In this document: positions 15 to 51,965 of the stretch, in pieces
Numbering within the stretch: the first letter of the stretch is position 1
How the letters are laid out: every line of letters starts with the position of its first letter
Virus record (IMG/VR): IMGVR_UViG_3300030294_000020
Source of the DNA: an uncultured virus (IMG/VR IMGVR_UViG_3300030294_000020)
Taxonomy: Duplodnaviria > Heunggongvirae > Uroviricota > Caudoviricetes
Length of the DNA: 64,000 nucleotides
Reading direction: 5' to 3' (one strand)
Notes under the pieces: model-generated
Database searches by the model: none
What the model was told of the DNA's origin: nothing
What the model saw: the letters and a program-made list of their open reading frames with translations, nothing else
Made by a program: the position numbers and the translations under genes

Positions 15-52
15 GTTAATAATCTCCTTTCAAGAGAAATTTTCAAATTTAA

Positions 53-9163: not shown

Positions 9164-9595
9164 TTACTTCCAAGGACAAGTATCATTCCTTGTTCTTTCT
9201 ATTGGTTTGATATCTAATTTACTAATGTCACCATAGTGAATAGCATTATGTGTATTTAATTTTGTAGTTATTAAATTTTCTGGGTCAAATATTATTGATC
9301 TTCTTTCTATAACATCATCATAAGTTATTGGTATTATGTGATGGCATAACATTGGTCCATAAATTTCAAAGTCTGGTCCGCAAGCTAAGTCACATCCATT
9401 ATCTCTAAGAATAATAGTTCTTCTAAATCCTCGCCATTCGCCAGAAGTATATAGAACTTGATTAACCCATCTTGTAAATCCAAAAGTATCTTTTCCAACT
9501 ACACCATTTAATTTTAAATATTCAAATCGTTCTTCAAAGGTTGAGAGTTTAATTAAATCTGAATAATTTTTATTCTTCTTCATCTGAATCACCAT
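9164..9595 (-). CDS. HNH endonuclease (packaging-associated)
   Basis: RDNGCDLAC..HHIIP..NLIT..HNAIH; adjacent to TerS. Confidence 0.8.
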   Translation of the reverse strand: MVIQMKKNKNYSDLIKLSTFEERFEYLKLNGVVGKDTFGFTRWVNQVLYTSGEWRGFRRTIILRDNGCDLACGPDFEIYGPMLCHHIIPITYDDVIERRSIIFDPENLITTKLNTHNAIHYGDISKLDIKPIERTRNDTCPWK

Positions 9596-9887
9596 TACCT
9601 GAATAACGTTTCATAGCATTGATAGCATTCTTATAAAGTTCTTCAACATTCTTTTCAGATTCAAGAGCTTTAGTTTTTGCAGTTAGTAATTTTTTCTGTT
9701 CAACTAAAATTTCTTTCTCAAGTTGATCTTTTGTAGAACCAAGTTTTAAATAATGGGTTATAACTTGTGATGATGCAGTACCATCACGTAATTGTTTCTC
9801 CGCAAGATCAGTAGCATACGAAACCATTTGATTTTCTCTGAACTGAGGAGTTGTGGCTGGTTGACGTTTTCTGATAGGGTTTGTCAT
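9570..9887 (-). CDS. Probable terminase small subunit
   Basis: Small helical protein (AEKQLRDGTASSQVITHYLKLGS), first gene of packaging module. Confidence 0.55.
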   Translation of the reverse strand: MTNPIRKRQPATTPQFRENQMVSYATDLAEKQLRDGTASSQVITHYLKLGSTKDQLEKEILVEQKKLLTAKTKALESEKNVEELYKNAINAMKRYSGNGDSDEEE

Positions 9888-9949
9888 TGTGCATCACCTC
9901 CAAATCATAGTTAGATTGTGTATAGTTTTAATGTGTTTGTTAGTACTTT

Positions 9950-10090
9950 GTGGTAGTTTTCAGGCACTTTTGCTAATGTTGGAAGAGCTTTTACTTTATC
10001 TATAATACTCTTGAAAGGAGACTTTACTTCAGTAATAAAATAAGGGGACAGAGCCGTTCCAACATTAGAAAAAGTGCCTGAAAATACCAC
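9950..10090. ncRNA. Long hairpin (about 35-bp arms, 72-nt loop), candidate small RNA
   Basis: 9950-9984 is the near-perfect reverse complement of 10057-10090. Confidence 0.55.
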
Positions 10091-10160
10091 CCCCGGGGAA
10101 AAATGGGAGAGACCCGCGATTTGATAGGGGGGGACTAGGGTGCGAACACCCCCCTATGGT
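10091..10160. other. Candidate genome terminus (cos/packaging site)
   Basis: Isolated GC-rich patch with CCCCGGGG palindrome and ATAGGGGGG/CCCCCCTAT inverted repeat, flanked by an AT tract, just upstream of TerS/HNH. Confidence 0.45.
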
Positions 10161-10273
10161 CTGAAAATCATTTTATTTTATTTTATTTTTAGAATTAGAA
10201 TTATAAATTAGAATAAGAATCAGAAATTATTTTTATTTTTTTATTTTTTTAAATTTTTTATTTTATTTATTTA

Positions 10274-10543
10274 TTATTCAACCACATTTGCCTCATCCTG
10301 TTGTGATACCTTCTTGTATATACCTAAGATGTTCATTAATACTATCTCATCCATTGCATCTTCGACTGCAAGATCGTTGTCTTCTTCACTTAGGGTGGGA
10401 GAGGTCTTTGTGATCCTTGCTAGGTAACTCAGTGTGCCATAGCCATGCTGTGTATCATACCCATTCCATGAATCAAACTGAGTGAATGGATCATATGGAT
10501 TGTCAGTAGTAGTAAGCATTGATTGGTTGATTGGTTGGCTCAT
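10274..10543 (-). CDS. Conserved-looking acidic hypothetical protein next to RNAP
   Basis: MLTTTDNPYDPFTQFDSW..GYGTLSYLARI; good RBS. Confidence 0.6.
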   Translation of the reverse strand: MSQPINQSMLTTTDNPYDPFTQFDSWNGYDTQHGYGTLSYLARITKTSPTLSEEDNDLAVEDAMDEIVLMNILGIYKKVSQQDEANVVE

Positions 10544-10561
10544 GGTTGTTCTCCTTTCTTA

Positions 10562-13504
10562 TTATTGTAGTGCTTTTACTTGACTTAATGGTATGCCTAA
10601 GGCATCTGCTATGTCTCTCTGAGTGTTACCTGTTGCTAACATAGATCTAACACGTGCTTCTCTAGCAGGAGTTAGCCCTGATGCAGTGTTAGTTCTAGGC
10701 ATTGCTAATTGCTTTACTATGTCAGGCTGTGAGTTATCAAGGATCTGCCTTAGTATGTGATCACTTATAGCACCTGCTTGTATTGCTTCCCATTGTTTAT
10801 CACTTATCTCTATTGCTTGCTTCTTAGATCCTATCCTAAGACGGGCACTCATTAGGGCTTGTCCTCTAATTTTTTTGAGGTCTGCTTTATCCATATCAGG
10901 ATTGTCTGCTTTCTTAGCATCAACTGTTGCATTGGCTAATAGCATGGCCTGTCTTTCAAGGGGGGCATTCTTAAGGGCGGTGTTAAGACTACTAAGTAGG
11001 GAGGATCTTTCTTCAGCATACACTTTCTTGGCCGAAGGTGAATAAACTAGGGAGGGGGTTGAAATGAGTGCTTTTCTTGCATCATTACCAAGAGCCTTTA
11101 ATTTATTAGCGTGAGTTGCATACACTGTCTCTATTGGTTGACCTGATGATAATGCAAATGCATCTTCTTCTTCATACATCTTAGTAGACACTATAGTTTT
11201 AGGGGTAGGGGTAGTTGATAAGGCATAGACTTTCTTACCTGCTTTATACTTTACTAACTCAGCAGGAGTCATGTCTGCTACATCCTTCTCTACTTTAACC
11301 GTTGTACTACCAGGTTTATAAACTTTCTTACCTGCATTATACTTTACTAACTCAGCAGGTGTCATCTCAGATACAGTCTTTTCTACTCTAACTTTAGTAG
11401 TTAAAGGTTTAAAGTAAGACTCACCACTATACTCCCATACTTTCTTTCCTGCATTGTGATCCGCTAACTCTTTAGGAGTCATGTTAAGTATCTTCTTACC
11501 TTTATTATGATCTGCTAATTCAGAAGGAGTCATGTTCTTTGTAGCTTTATATACAGTCTTTTCTTTTCTAACACCTACTCTAGTATCCGAAGATGCTTTA
11601 GAGATAATAGTTTGAGCACCACCTGTAGCTGTTTGATATCGTTTCTTAAGTGCACCTATTTGGTTATCTCTATAAGATTTCTTATAATCAAGATTATGTT
11701 TCTCAGCATCTATTACAACCATTGAATGCTTAACTGCTCTACAAACTTCATCTGGTGGAGCTCCAGCAATTGTCATGTCTGTAATTAGATTAGAAATTTT
11801 ACCCATTTCCATACCTTTAGTATGAGATGTCATTTTAGGCATTCCATCGTATGGCGGATAACTTTCTTTAGCATCAAACCCTACTAATCCTTTTAGGGCG
11901 GGGGTTGATTTAATAGTATTACCATGAGCATTAGGAATTACAATTACATTATCACCATCAAAATCTGCCCCTGATAATCTCTCAGCAACTTTAGGACTAA
12001 TACCAACTGCGTCTTTTGTTGGCCCAAGAAGTTTCTTAGCTAATGGATGATTATTATTTACTGTTAATACTGGTATTTCAAATGTACCACCATGTGGATG
12101 TCTAACTAAAGCTACTGATTCTCCATTACGAAAATTAGGAGCATATATCTCTGTATCTTTCATAGTAGTAACTGGCAATATTACTTGGGCTGCTTGACGA
12201 GGCATTGCTGCTGCTTTTAAATGAACAGCATCTGAATCGCAACCATCTGCAAATTCTTCTAATAACTTTCTCTTTACTGTAGGATTAGTCAAAGACATAA
12301 TAGTATCATACTCTTCTTTTTTAGCATCATAGGTTAAACCTAATTGTTGTTTGGCTAAAGCTAATGGTTGTTTAGATAGAAATTGAGATGATAAATTTTT
12401 ATTCCATTTATCCCAATCTCCTTCATCATTAACTTTATTAATTGGAGATAATTGATCTTTTCCTTTACTATCTATGTAATGACGTTGTCCAGTAAAATCT
12501 TTAATCTTTGCTCCAAATGGATTATCTGGGTCAATAGTAGGATCATCTTTACTAATAGTTTTTAAAGGTTTTAATACTTTTAATTTAGGAGTATCCTTTC
12601 CTTTATTAGTATTAAACATTATGTCAGTTCCTGCTGGAAGATCATCAGAATACATAGCCATACCCTTTAAGTAATGTGATCCATCAACCATAATACGAAC
12701 TTGTGCATATGAAGTATTACCAAGAGATATTTCTTCCATACCCCTTCTTAATTCAATAACTCCATCTTTATCTGCACCACCATCTTCTTTATATCTGATG
12801 GCAACTCTCTTTGATGATACACTCTTAGGATACTCTATACCATATGCAGTTTTACCATCTTCTTCAACATGATGATCTATTACCATTTTAATCTCTGATT
12901 GTCTTTTATAGAGATCAGCATAAGGTATTCCAGGAGGGGATAATACAAGAATTGTAGTTTTCTTATTACCACCAATTCCTAATTGAAGAACATTTATATT
13001 ACGAGTTTCATAACCTTCTTCTTGTAATTTACTAACTGCTGTCATCATTTTAGTTCGGTTAACACCCAAGTATCTTTCTTGACCAATTCCTATATCAATA
13101 AGATTATTTTTTCCAACAGCATCTCTTAAGGCATCAGCAACTACTGCTGTTTTCTGACTTCTCTCATAAATATCTTTATTAAGTAATGAACGAACAGATG
13201 ATTCATTTGGCATACCAAGTTGCTTAGCAATTGCTGTATCACTAAGACCTTTACTTTTTAATTCAGTAGCTAATGAAAAGTTTGCTTTCTTTTCTTCCAT
13301 ACGAGCTAAGGATATCTTTTTTCTAAGTTCACTAGTTGTTTCTAATCCAGTTCCTTTAGCTATATCAATTGGTGAAAGACCTTTCTTTTTAAGATCGCTC
13401 ACCATATTAAGAAAAGTTTTATTTCTTTGATCTGGATCATCTCCAGAACCTCTTGGATATCTTCCTGAATAGCTAGTACCAATATGATATAATTCTTCAC
13501 TCAC
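10562..13504 (-). CDS. Single-subunit two-barrel DNA-dependent RNA polymerase with terminal HTH domains
   Basis: LSGADFDGD catalytic motif preceded by VRHPHGG; HTH-like segments at both ends. Confidence 0.8.
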   Translation of the reverse strand: MSEELYHIGTSYSGRYPRGSGDDPDQRNKTFLNMVSDLKKKGLSPIDIAKGTGLETTSELRKKISLARMEEKKANFSLATELKSKGLSDTAIAKQLGMPNESSVRSLLNKDIYERSQKTAVVADALRDAVGKNNLIDIGIGQERYLGVNRTKMMTAVSKLQEEGYETRNINVLQLGIGGNKKTTILVLSPPGIPYADLYKRQSEIKMVIDHHVEEDGKTAYGIEYPKSVSSKRVAIRYKEDGGADKDGVIELRRGMEEISLGNTSYAQVRIMVDGSHYLKGMAMYSDDLPAGTDIMFNTNKGKDTPKLKVLKPLKTISKDDPTIDPDNPFGAKIKDFTGQRHYIDSKGKDQLSPINKVNDEGDWDKWNKNLSSQFLSKQPLALAKQQLGLTYDAKKEEYDTIMSLTNPTVKRKLLEEFADGCDSDAVHLKAAAMPRQAAQVILPVTTMKDTEIYAPNFRNGESVALVRHPHGGTFEIPVLTVNNNHPLAKKLLGPTKDAVGISPKVAERLSGADFDGDNVIVIPNAHGNTIKSTPALKGLVGFDAKESYPPYDGMPKMTSHTKGMEMGKISNLITDMTIAGAPPDEVCRAVKHSMVVIDAEKHNLDYKKSYRDNQIGALKKRYQTATGGAQTIISKASSDTRVGVRKEKTVYKATKNMTPSELADHNKGKKILNMTPKELADHNAGKKVWEYSGESYFKPLTTKVRVEKTVSEMTPAELVKYNAGKKVYKPGSTTVKVEKDVADMTPAELVKYKAGKKVYALSTTPTPKTIVSTKMYEEEDAFALSSGQPIETVYATHANKLKALGNDARKALISTPSLVYSPSAKKVYAEERSSLLSSLNTALKNAPLERQAMLLANATVDAKKADNPDMDKADLKKIRGQALMSARLRIGSKKQAIEISDKQWEAIQAGAISDHILRQILDNSQPDIVKQLAMPRTNTASGLTPAREARVRSMLATGNTQRDIADALGIPLSQVKALQ
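11229..11533 (-). repeat. Four intragenic repeats encoding MTPxELxxxxxGKK in RNAP
   Basis: ~44-nt units at about 11229, 11322, 11439, 11490. Confidence 0.85.
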
Positions 13505-49404: not shown

Positions 49405-51965
49405 TTATATTAGAGTACCTTCTACTATTGGATAAATACAGTGTAATAATGGTGCTCTCATATTTTTATCTTGGTATTTCTTAGACCAATCAGTCATTAG
49501 AATTTTAAGTGCATCTTCTTCATTATAACTTATAACACTAATATATTTAGTAGAATAATAATCGATGTCTGCACAAAATTGATATATTTGTAACTTTGGT
49601 TTAACCGCTTTTACTTTTCGTATTTTATTTTCTACCCTTAAAGCATAGTGACTATAGCAAGGGTTCTCTCTTTTTGTAAGTTTATCTCGATCTTTAATGA
49701 TTACAAACTCACATTCTAAGGGTTTTATTACTATATTTGCTCTATAATTAAATCTAAGTATGTCAATAACTGTTCCTCGTTTTCCAAAATTTCTACTCTG
49801 CTTAGATGATACCACAACAATATCACCTATTCTAAGATCTCTAACTTCTTCTTTATTCATAATTATTTGCTCCTTTCAAAAGCATATTTTTAAAAAGTTG
49901 TTGTTTTAATAGGATTTTCTCCTGAATAGTCAAATGATTCAGTTAATATCCAAGGATTCTCTAAGCTTTCTTTAAGTTCTTTAAGTTCTTTATGCTCTTT
50001 AATTAATAAGAAAGTTAAAGATACTATAGCGATGCTTAAAATAGTAATAGAGGCATTTTTAATTTTATCTTTATTTATTTTCATTGTTATTTGCTCCTTT
50101 CAAAAGCATAATTTACCAGTTAAATCTTTTATCTCTTGGTGCATTAAGCCATACTGTTAGTTCTTTAGTTCTCATTTCACTTAATAATTTCTTAAAAAAT
50201 CTACATTCAGGTCTAGGATGATTGTCATATGTCAGTAGCATAATTGTATCACATAGTAAATTAGATTCAAAGAAATGCTCTTTATTAGTCTCTACATGCT
50301 CTTCTGTTTTATTTTCCATAATATTTGTTCCTTCCTAATTATCTGCATAAGCCATAGCCATTTTTTTACAATCATCTAATGTCTTAGCTTTAAATCCAAC
50401 AGGTATCCCGTACTTAGCTTTTATCTTATAGCATTTTTTCATGACTGTACCAATACCAAAACTATGTAATCGCCCATCAGCTCTCCAGCCGTGCCAAGTT
50501 TGGTTCTCTTCGCAAAAACCTATACAATATTCATTCTCTGTAAGTTTTATACTTCCTGGTTTAATACCTCTGTTAGTAATATTGTTGTTGTTCATAATAC
50601 TTGCTCCTTTCAAAAGCATATTATATATAGAGACAAATAAAAGGTAAGTCTCGCAACTACTTTCATATAGATAATTGGATTTTCACCAACTTCCTAAATA
50701 TCATCATGTGATATCCTATGGAACCTTAAGGTTGTCTATATTTACCTTTCATTATAATACATGTTATTTACGCGAGATTATACTACTTATCAACTTTAAA
50801 TGATAAAGCATGATGGGTAAATCCATATAGATATACTCCAGTATACAAGACTGGTGTGGCTATACCAACCATAAACTCACAATTATAAGGTTCTAAATAT
50901 ATATCACCTATACCTGAAGTTGTTACTCCTATAGCTATAGTTATAGCTCTAACTATACCAATTTTACCATAGTTTTTATTCCTTGGACCAGATACTTCAA
51001 CTATATCTCCAATTTTCAAAGTTTTAACTTCAACCTTATCCATAATTATTTGCTCCTTTCAAAAGCATAATTTATTCTAGACTTTTACCATACTCATTTA
51101 CTGATCCATCTTCATTGTGTGTCATGTAATAGAACTCTTTATCATCATACATATCGATAGTATCTGGCACTTCTCCTGTATATGGTGTTGGTTTAGTGAT
51201 AACTATTTCTCGTACAAATAAACCTACATATAATCCAATTATTAGTAATCCTCCAAGTGCAAGTGCTTTTTTGATTTTAGTCTTTTTATTCATTATTAAT
51301 TTCTCCTTTCAAAATATATCATCCTCGTCTAATATAGAAATGCCATTAAATTGTATACCTGATGCCTTTTCATTAAGATCCTTTATGAATCTTTTAAGGG
51401 TCACAAGTTCTTTAGGTGTATAATTATTTGCAGGCCACGTAATTGGTTTATTACCTAACATGGGGGTCATATAAAATTCTTTTATTGGTTCATCTATTGA
51501 TGGTATTAATTGAAATGTTTGATGTGCAAATGCATAAAATCCATGTTTATTTTTACGTCGAGTTTTAGGATTATAAAATGTAAACTCACCATCTAAAGGT
51601 TGTAAATATACATTAGACTCACCCCACATATCTCTTAGTATTTCTGTAACCATTCCTCTTTTTCCTTGATTACCACCATGAGTTGTTATAACAACAATAT
51701 TACCTACTTTAAGATTTTTAAGTTCTTTTTGATTCATATTTAACTTTCTCCTTTCAATTCGTGATTATTTATTTTCTAAATCATATATAAATTTTAAATG
51801 TCTCCAACTATACCTTCTAATTTTATCAGGGTCAATGGTTACAACAACTTTACCAGCGACAAATCCCCGAACTACTGCACAGCAACCTTTGTCTTTGGAA
51901 TTAGCATTTCCTTCAATAAGCACAACATCTTTTATTTTTAAATTACTGTATTCTTCTGGAGTCAT
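49405..51965 (-). other. Gene run including four KOW/SH3-like paralogs (49405-49860, 50783-51043, 51309-51737, 51765-51965) and small TM proteins
   Basis: Shared LKIGDIVxV..GKxGxV motif; TTGAAAGGAG RBSs. Confidence 0.6.
50632..50751 (-). ncRNA. Structured non-coding cassette RNA (~115 nt, multibranch)
   Basis: Promoter 50748-50774; AAAGGTAA/TTACCTTT closing stem; ATATCA/TGATAT and GTTGG-TGAAAAT-CCAAT hairpins. Confidence 0.6.

Follow-up and report, generated by a model that had tools for sequence, protein, structure and literature searches.

A conserved stem-loop before the late genes of phages with a YonO-like RNA polymerase looks like a control element for late gene expression

What is the role of a long inverted repeat that separates the polymerase gene from the packaging genes of an uncultured tailed phage? 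The repeat lies in the stretch of DNA analysed here (64,000 nucleotides, hereafter the window), in a gap of 386 bp (9888-10273) between two minus-strand genes. All sizeable genes of the window are located on the minus strand, and its G+C content is 30.7%. An earlier note on this DNA had proposed that the repeat is transcribed on the minus strand into a hairpin RNA, which displays the complement of the phage's own ribosome-binding site in its loop and regulates phage genes in trans at the start of the late region. To us, the hairpin has the look of a late-expression control element that has not been described before, and it offers a short, mutable target for experiments in harmless model systems.

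The stem-loop and the joined genome ends

The hairpin with arms of about 35 bp that the earlier note had described at 9950-10090 was borne out. An inverted-repeat search gave core arms of 33 nt (9957-9989 and 10052-10084; 91% complementary, with 62 nt between them), which reach 9950-10090 in RNA folds when one bulge is allowed. No inverted repeat of the 64-kb window is stronger; it ranks first of the 14 pairs listed, all with arms of 18 nt or more within 200 nt. An ungapped scan of the hairpin gave 27 matches, whereas 300 dinucleotide shuffles of the 450-nt region averaged 7.1 and never exceeded 20. The predicted RNA fold has an energy of -58.1 kcal/mol on the minus strand and -61.2 kcal/mol on the plus strand (z-scores -7.2 and -7.4, respectively), and none of 200 shuffles folded equally well. 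Coordinates of the hairpin and its surroundings are summarized in Table 1.

A search of the whole window against Rfam 15 at gathering scores returned no matches, and an E-value search of positions 9850-10300 returned rows at chance level, the best of them a plant miRNA precursor (20.7 bits, against a threshold of 122). At the DNA level, GenBank phages gave only weak coding matches to positions 9500-10700. We did not find the hairpin described in the literature on YonO and promoters, on actinophage RdRP and inverted repeats, on phage anti-Shine-Dalgarno sequences and small RNAs, or on phage 1706 and cos; Garneau et al. (2008) on phage 1706, which may cover the cos region, was outside the scope of this search. 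As a structured element, the hairpin is new and widely conserved; its general kind is known.

Table 1. Features at and around the hairpin, in window coordinates
Feature	Position	Strand	Remarks
HNH endonuclease gene	9164-9595	-	after the first late gene
First late gene, 105 aa, phrog_4259	9570..9887	-	highly conserved protein
Long stem-loop	9950..10090	-	sense order: 5' arm 10090-10052, loop 10051-9990, 3' arm 9989-9950
Sigma-70-like TTGGAA-16-TATAAT	9979..10006	+	antisense strand, inside 3' arm and loop
Loop motif TCTCCTTTCAAGAG	10008..10021	-	core CTCCTTTC at 10013-10020; anti-Shine-Dalgarno-like
Conserved left-end motif	10077..10109	-	overlap with the outer 5' arm; contigs of relatives start there
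Cos cleavage/overhang region, conserved ATCGCG..GTCT	10110..10122	-	approximate, cut positions not exact
Short G7/C6 hairpin, right genome end	10124..10157		kept in relatives; several contigs end just past it
AT-rich stretch	10165..10273		short tandem repeats (ATTTT, TTAGAA, T-rich 8-9-mers)
Conserved 89-aa ORF, phrog_4303	10274..10543	-	after the polymerase gene
YonO/QDE-1-like two-barrel RNA polymerase, 980 aa, phrog_4291	10562..13504	-	

The 980-aa protein encoded upstream of the hairpin matches phrog_4291 with E = 0 (annotation 'RNA-dependent RNA polymerase'). As described in those parts of the literature that deal with this YonO/QDE-1-like group, its polymerases occur in Lactococcus phage 1706, in Faecalibacterium phages and in an actinophage supercluster (PMC2919709; bioRxiv 10.1101/842583). 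Downstream of the hairpin in the sense direction, the 105-aa gene and the HNH endonuclease gene are followed by those for the connector, the large terminase, the portal, a protease-capsid fusion and the major tail protein. In linear relatives, the polymerase gene is located at the extreme right end of the genome and the 105-aa gene at or near the left end; therefore, the window spans a joined cos site. We place the physical left end of the packaged genome at 10109, where a contig of the window phage (L085) begins. Many contigs of relatives begin at one conserved sequence, which in three of them is directly preceded by bases that are presumably remnants of sequencing adaptors. The conserved ATCGCG..GTCT stretch and the G7/C6 hairpin are located on the right-end side, and the big hairpin starts approximately 19 nt inside the left cos end. 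The AT-rich stretch, located between the 89-aa ORF and the G7/C6 hairpin, is variable or absent in relatives. For annotation, the hairpin can serve as a marker of the start of the late unit and of the cos junction in this group of phages.

The 105-aa and 89-aa proteins had no match in Pfam (89-aa protein: E up to 0.01) or in a sequence search of the PDB, and Foldseek searches with their models returned no match with E ≤ 0.001. AlphaFold predicts the first late protein to consist of two helices, a short one and one of 58 residues, and the 89-aa protein to adopt a small alpha/beta fold. The first late gene may encode the small terminase. Its product is highly conserved (61-73% identity over 22 lineages). 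In SPbeta, the position of the 89-aa ORF is taken by the HU-like yonN.

Conservation, base pairing and strand of the hairpin

We compared 80 IMG/VR loci found via the polymerase gene and 80 found via the 105-aa gene (gene 1). With an ungapped repeat finder, most loci have a hairpin with arms of 21-44 nt and loops of 32-126 nt, and the arm sequences vary between lineages yet remain complementary. A gapped test, in which a CTCCTTTC-like site (at most one mismatch) had to be accompanied by 150-nt flanks forming a duplex of -25 kcal/mol or lower, was positive in 73 of the 80 gene-1 loci and in 32 of the 33 polymerase-side loci with at least 900 nt downstream (-60 to -93 kcal/mol), at a threshold that is lenient, with controls positive in 26/80 cases on the antisense strand and in 9/80 cases in coding sequence. 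In four of the seven gene-1 loci that were missed, fewer than 200 nt of sequence lie upstream.

The hairpin is also present in Lactococcus phage 1706 (32-179), Faecalibacterium phage FP_oengus and MT835495, as well as in the Arthrobacter phages Gordon, LilHuddy and Correa, the Microbacterium phage DizzyRudy and the Bifidobacterium phage BitterVaud1. The Streptomyces phages Bing and Scap1 have a short hairpin only, which in Bing is followed by a C/T-rich tract. The structure is deeply conserved and accompanies the YonO-like polymerase in phages that infect Firmicutes and Actinobacteria, among them culturable ones from dairy, gut and soil. Its place relative to the neighbouring genes differs among these phages. 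In DizzyRudy (L176), the hairpin (2103-2240) is found 2.1 kb in from the genome end, between a lysis cassette and the gene-1 homologue, which it immediately precedes; its 5' arm begins 9 nt past the stop codon of gene 5, and the end motif is located at 1-35. In phage 1706, the hairpin lies ahead of orf1-3, and the gene-1 homologue is orf4. The common denominator of these positions is the boundary where the late unit begins.

Base pairing was analysed in an alignment of a 15-sequence subfamily (A1), for which RNAalifold predicted 33 pairs, nine of them with compensatory changes. Paired cells amount to 98.4% in the alignment versus 92.7% in shuffles, with none of 500 shuffles reaching the observed value, and controls with slid partners pair at 34-52%. 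The pair table contains 74 G.U cells and eight non-standard cells, of which six are A.C. Over 48 non-redundant hairpins, G.U pairs number 286 in the sense folds versus 135 in the antisense folds. The sense fold is the more stable one in 42 of these 48 hairpins (mean -9.3 kcal/mol, Wilcoxon p = 2e-8); the window hairpin is one of the six exceptions, its antisense fold being slightly better (-61.0 against -57.9 kcal/mol). In a separate set of eight named phages, for which the segments were over-extended, the sense strand is more stable in six. A double-stranded protein site or a symmetric cruciform would be expected to lack such a strand bias. The bias therefore points to selection of the structure on the sense single strand, most simply as an RNA made on the minus strand, and the minus-strand (gene-sense) orientation claimed by the earlier note is in agreement with it.

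The hairpin is non-coding. A 59-aa ORF at 9911-10090 was considered as a protein-coding gene and rejected, because the sense frame through the hairpin is open in only 13 of the 48 representatives; the antisense frame is open in 11. The earlier note had also named a case that would speak against its proposal, namely that the + strand TATAAT and GGAG simply drive a gene on that strand. This case failed, as no start codon follows the + strand GGAG, no open frame is conserved on either strand, and the TTGGAA-16-TATAAT promoter is confined to the window phage (the window and L085) and its closest relative L086, with TATAATGC in its place in L087. Among relatives, no conserved promoter belonging to the hairpin was seen. 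We found no terminator-like site (a G+C-rich stem followed by a U tract) in 9500-10700, and T runs were not seen in the downstream flanks of the hairpins in A1.

The loop motif and the ribosome-binding sites

The loop of the hairpin is conserved, the opposite of which the earlier note had listed as grounds for abandoning its proposal. CTCCTTTC is present exactly in 42 of 48 loops, and with at most one mismatch in 46; T runs precede it, and A-rich sequence follows. In a tally of 12 loci, the sense CTCCTTTC occurs once in eight and is absent from the other four, of which L010, L012 and L044 carry variants with one mismatch. The motif has a mean predicted probability of being unpaired of 0.73, compared with 0.46 for the loop average, and the value is higher for the motif in 41 of 46 cases. 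The claimed display of an anti-Shine-Dalgarno sequence holds in that an accessible motif is predicted in nearly all relatives. The four Arthrobacter and Microbacterium phages carry CTCCTTTCAAGA(G), which equals the 12-13-mer of the window, despite a G+C content of 48-56% in their leader regions.

In RNA letters the invariant core of the loop is CUCCUUUC, which equals the anti-Shine-Dalgarno tail of 16S rRNA. The loops contain 185 anti-Shine-Dalgarno-like pentamers versus eight Shine-Dalgarno-like ones, and CCTCC is found in 18 of 48 loops versus a single loop with GGAGG. The frequency of CCTCC is approximately nine-fold above expectation (18 loops, against an estimate of about two sites from composition), and larger loops often have a second CCUCC. 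Because two different 16S-like motifs are thus found in the loops, we argue that complementarity to the Shine-Dalgarno sequence is the selected property. All eight positions of the loop motif are equally invariant, and the base before CUCC is U in 36 of 46 loops, while the 3' tail of 16S rRNA has a C at this position. The equal invariance and this U fit one fixed partner better than loose pairing with Shine-Dalgarno sequences.

In the window phage, the match of the loop to ribosome-binding sites is more extended. The 10-mer CTCCTTTCAA occurs 16 times in the window, against 0.35 expected. Fifteen copies are located on the + strand, with count and positions exactly as given in the earlier note (24, 20474, 24274, 24913, 42738, 45002, 49266, 49870, 50094, 50604, 51053, 51303, 51748, 51974 and 52507). 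These copies are real ribosome-binding sites, because each of them lies 6-10 nt ahead of the ATG of a minus-strand gene. The lone minus-strand copy (10011-10020) is found in the loop of the hairpin, as had been noticed before, and on the + strand no ATG, GTG or TTG follows it at a usable distance. The reported 14-nt perfect match between loop and leader is equally correct, with an identical 14-mer at 23-36 (+) and 10008-10021 (-). Of the 19 sense GAAAGGAG sites in the window, 15 carry TT directly before them.

Relatives differ in this respect. MT835495 has three sense GAAAGGAG sites, none of which fits the flank of its own loop, and phage 1706 has five, with no window-type cassette of ribosome-binding sites seen there; the match of 10-14 nt between the loop and the phage's own cassette was not seen in either of these two relatives, which were the two checked. 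The loop motif is older than the cassette of the window phage, because the actinophages carry the same CTCCTTTCAAGA(G). We also compared the pairing of loops with the gene-1 ribosome site of their own phage and with those of other phages. The own site paired better in 24 of 39 cases, which gives no signal (p = 0.31), and no conserved target emerged at the 89-aa ORF or the polymerase gene, whose ribosome sites vary. For covariation between loop and ribosome-binding sites, which had been suggested as a check, the observations are that the loop core is kept, the cassette is missing from the two relatives and the gene-1 sites give no own-versus-other signal.

Pairing of the loop with the leaders of the window had been suggested as a further check. 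It is predicted at -20 kcal/mol or lower for 12 translation-initiation regions (-20.1 to -23.2 kcal/mol), of which ten belong to early genes (starts above 30,000) and most bear the ..TTGAAAGGAG.. cassette; the strongest late gene reaches -16.9 kcal/mol. Of the earlier proposal of an anti-Shine-Dalgarno RNA, the minus strand, the lack of a coding function, the location at the start of the late region and the displayed motif stand; the extended match to ribosome-binding sites is not general, as it was not seen in MT835495 or 1706. Judged by sequence complementarity, regulation of a phage regulon in trans is possible in the window phage; conservation across the family does not point there.

Explanations for the hairpin

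We hypothesize that the hairpin is a non-coding minus-strand RNA stem-loop at the boundary of the late unit, displaying an anti-Shine-Dalgarno sequence that pairs with Shine-Dalgarno sequences. We hold this explanation tentatively, at somewhat less than an even chance. The RNA would mark the boundary between the transcription unit of the polymerase and right arm and that of the packaging and structural (late) genes, and we infer that transcription would proceed through the hairpin on the gene-sense strand. The long stem, 25-44 bp in relatives, would hold out the pyrimidine-rich loop, and the loop would pair with the Shine-Dalgarno sequence of the first late cistron in cis, with early or host mRNAs led by such sequences in trans, or with both. 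Such pairing would tune translation at the onset of late transcription. Host RNase III would cut the long, perfectly double-stranded stem and separate the two units, and the cut could set the upper stem-loop free as a small RNA. Perfect double-stranded RNA of such length is expected to be a substrate of RNase III, and the stems of the hairpins do contain the roughly 20 bp or more of near-perfect duplex that characterizes RNase III sites. If the explanation is correct, the phage would make a mimic of the tail with which the ribosome docks on mRNA, re-programming translation at the switch from early to late expression.

Small RNAs with C/U-rich loops that pair with Shine-Dalgarno sequences include RNAIII and RsaE of S. 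aureus and RoxS of B. subtilis. The element shares with them a stable hairpin and an accessible pyrimidine motif complementary to the Shine-Dalgarno sequence, with more than one motif per RNA in some lineages. It differs in being encoded by a phage and located in an operon leader or boundary, and in having neither a terminator (sought in 9500-10700) nor a conserved promoter of its own. Moreover, its stems are far longer, its motif copies eight nucleotides of the 16S tail exactly, where theirs is UCCC, and its targets are predicted ones. A functional analogue of the proposed role is found in the T4 endoribonuclease RegB, which attacks GGAG in ribosome sites and thereby shuts off early mRNAs; unlike the proposed pairing RNA, RegB is a protein nuclease.

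The main rival explanation, which we consider fairly unlikely, sees in the hairpin the initiation structure (promoter) that the YonO-like polymerase uses; the enzyme would recognise the single-stranded loop and start the late transcript there, either upon extrusion of the inverted repeat or upon folding of the non-template strand. A precedent for a single-subunit phage polymerase with a DNA hairpin promoter is the virion RNA polymerase of N4, the promoters of which have stems of 5-7 bp and loops of 3 nt on the template strand. The present hairpin does not have the features of this type, as its arms measure 25-44 nt and its loops 32-126 nt, and its wobble bias favours the non-template (sense) strand, opposite to the template-strand hairpins of N4. 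Spacers of 32-126 nt would also make extrusion of a cruciform hard. Co-occurrence of hairpin and polymerase in phages infecting Firmicutes and Actinobacteria speaks for a promoter, as do the first rank of the hairpin among the inverted repeats of the window, the invariance of all eight motif positions, which is as expected for a protein recognition site, and the arrangement in DizzyRudy, where the 9 nt between the stop codon of gene 5 and the 5' arm leave no room for an upstream promoter. On the other hand, a promoter would leave both the identity of the motif to the 16S tail and the second motif, CCTCC, in 18 of 48 loops to coincidence.

What is published on YonO bears on the same explanation. 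In the sections of that study on transcription by YonO, the enzyme has one late start site and its promoter is unknown (PMC5467207); the single copy of the hairpin in each genome stretch examined matches this single start. According to the same sections, YonO did not form an open complex on duplex DNA, and the authors suspected a special DNA structure (PMC5467207). A hairpin used for initiation would answer both the question of the YonO promoter and the lack of an open complex on linear DNA. In its most specific form, which we regard as unlikely, the hairpin is the missing promoter structure of YonO-type two-barrel polymerases: the enzyme would load on the single-stranded loop and recognise CTCCTTTC with no need to melt a duplex, and the late operon would be switched on only if the DNA is supercoiled or replicating.

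The late leader of SPbeta, as far as it is described in the YonO study (PMC5467207), resembles the window in the order of a polymerase gene, a small ORF, a long non-coding leader and the late operon. The published start site corresponds to position 2225998 of the 168 genome, and on SPbeta it is bounded only by two primers. The strongest repeat between yonN and yonK lies within the 216-nt interval between these primer-extension primers, which must hold the start; it is an inverted repeat with 23-nt arms and a sense bias of two G.U pairs (10373-10462 in L166). The start itself is not exactly mapped, and the loop of this hairpin has no anti-Shine-Dalgarno motif, which weakens the case for a promoter. 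SPbeta differs from the window also in that its polymerase family is only distantly related to the 980-aa polymerase, in that its small ORF yonN encodes an HU protein, whereas the 89-aa ORF has no Pfam match, and in that its pac site is located elsewhere. A second SPbeta repeat, with 16-nt arms, is found just before yonK (9186-9304), and its loop holds CTCCTTT.

Alternatively, the hairpin may be a processing or stability element only, either an RNase III site or an insulator between the upstream and the late unit, with the loop motif bound by a conserved phage or host protein; we think this quite unlikely. Processing hairpins cut by RNase III are known from the R sites of T7, the N leader of lambda and B. 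subtilis phage SP82, and in phages a cut of this kind should set the ends of an mRNA and affect translation of the following gene. The likeness consists of a long double-stranded stem between units of a phage genome read from one strand. Near-perfect stems of 25-44 bp, the constant location at a unit boundary, which is tied neither to cos (DizzyRudy) nor to gene 1 (1706), the invariance of the motif over 8 nt and the lack of an own-versus-other signal at ribosome sites are all in agreement with such a role. It leaves the anti-Shine-Dalgarno identity of the motif and the roughly nine-fold excess of CCTCC in loops without explanation, however, and no binding protein was found; the predicted structures of the 105-aa and 89-aa proteins had no informative match. 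In contrast to the hairpin, the sites of T7, lambda and SP82 have no conserved anti-Shine-Dalgarno loop and are not conserved across phyla, and cleavage of the hairpin is putative.

A free small RNA acting in trans, which would repress those genes of the window phage that bear a UUGAAAGGAG ribosome site, is in our opinion distinctly unlikely. The complementarity of 10-14 nt to 15 sites, the TT before most GAAAGGAG sites, the concentration of the 12 strongest predicted duplexes on early genes and the predicted accessibility of the motif all speak for it. Against these, the loop is ancestral, as actinophages share its 12-13-mer, and so was not shaped by the cassette of the window phage; MT835495 and 1706 have no such cassette, the hairpin lacks a promoter-plus-terminator pair, and the cassette may merely be a repeated sequence at module boundaries.

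Finally, it is highly improbable that the hairpin is a packaging site on DNA (a cosB-like terminase site), which would account for its adjoining cos in most members but was rejected as a site fixed beside the cos cut because in DizzyRudy the end motif stays terminal and the hairpin is 2.1 kb away from the genome end, and which as a double-stranded protein site would not be expected to show strand-asymmetric wobble, or that it is a promoter and ribosome-binding site for a + strand gene, for which the TTGGAA-16-TATAAT and following GGAG in the window are countered by the lack of a start codon, of a conserved frame and of conservation beyond L086.

Two repeated sequences of the window were noticed in the course of this analysis. 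A near-identical leader cassette, ..ATGCTTTTGAAAGGAGCAAATAA.., precedes at least six unrelated small genes between 24266 and 51043 (gene starts, for example, at 51043, 50595, 50084, 49860, 42728 and 24266), and this repeated cassette could mark recombination boundaries. The octamer TTTGTCTC has 13 copies on the sense strand before small early genes between 45016 and 62431, and both strands together hold 17 copies, where 3.1 would be expected; this octamer is a candidate early promoter or module-boundary motif.
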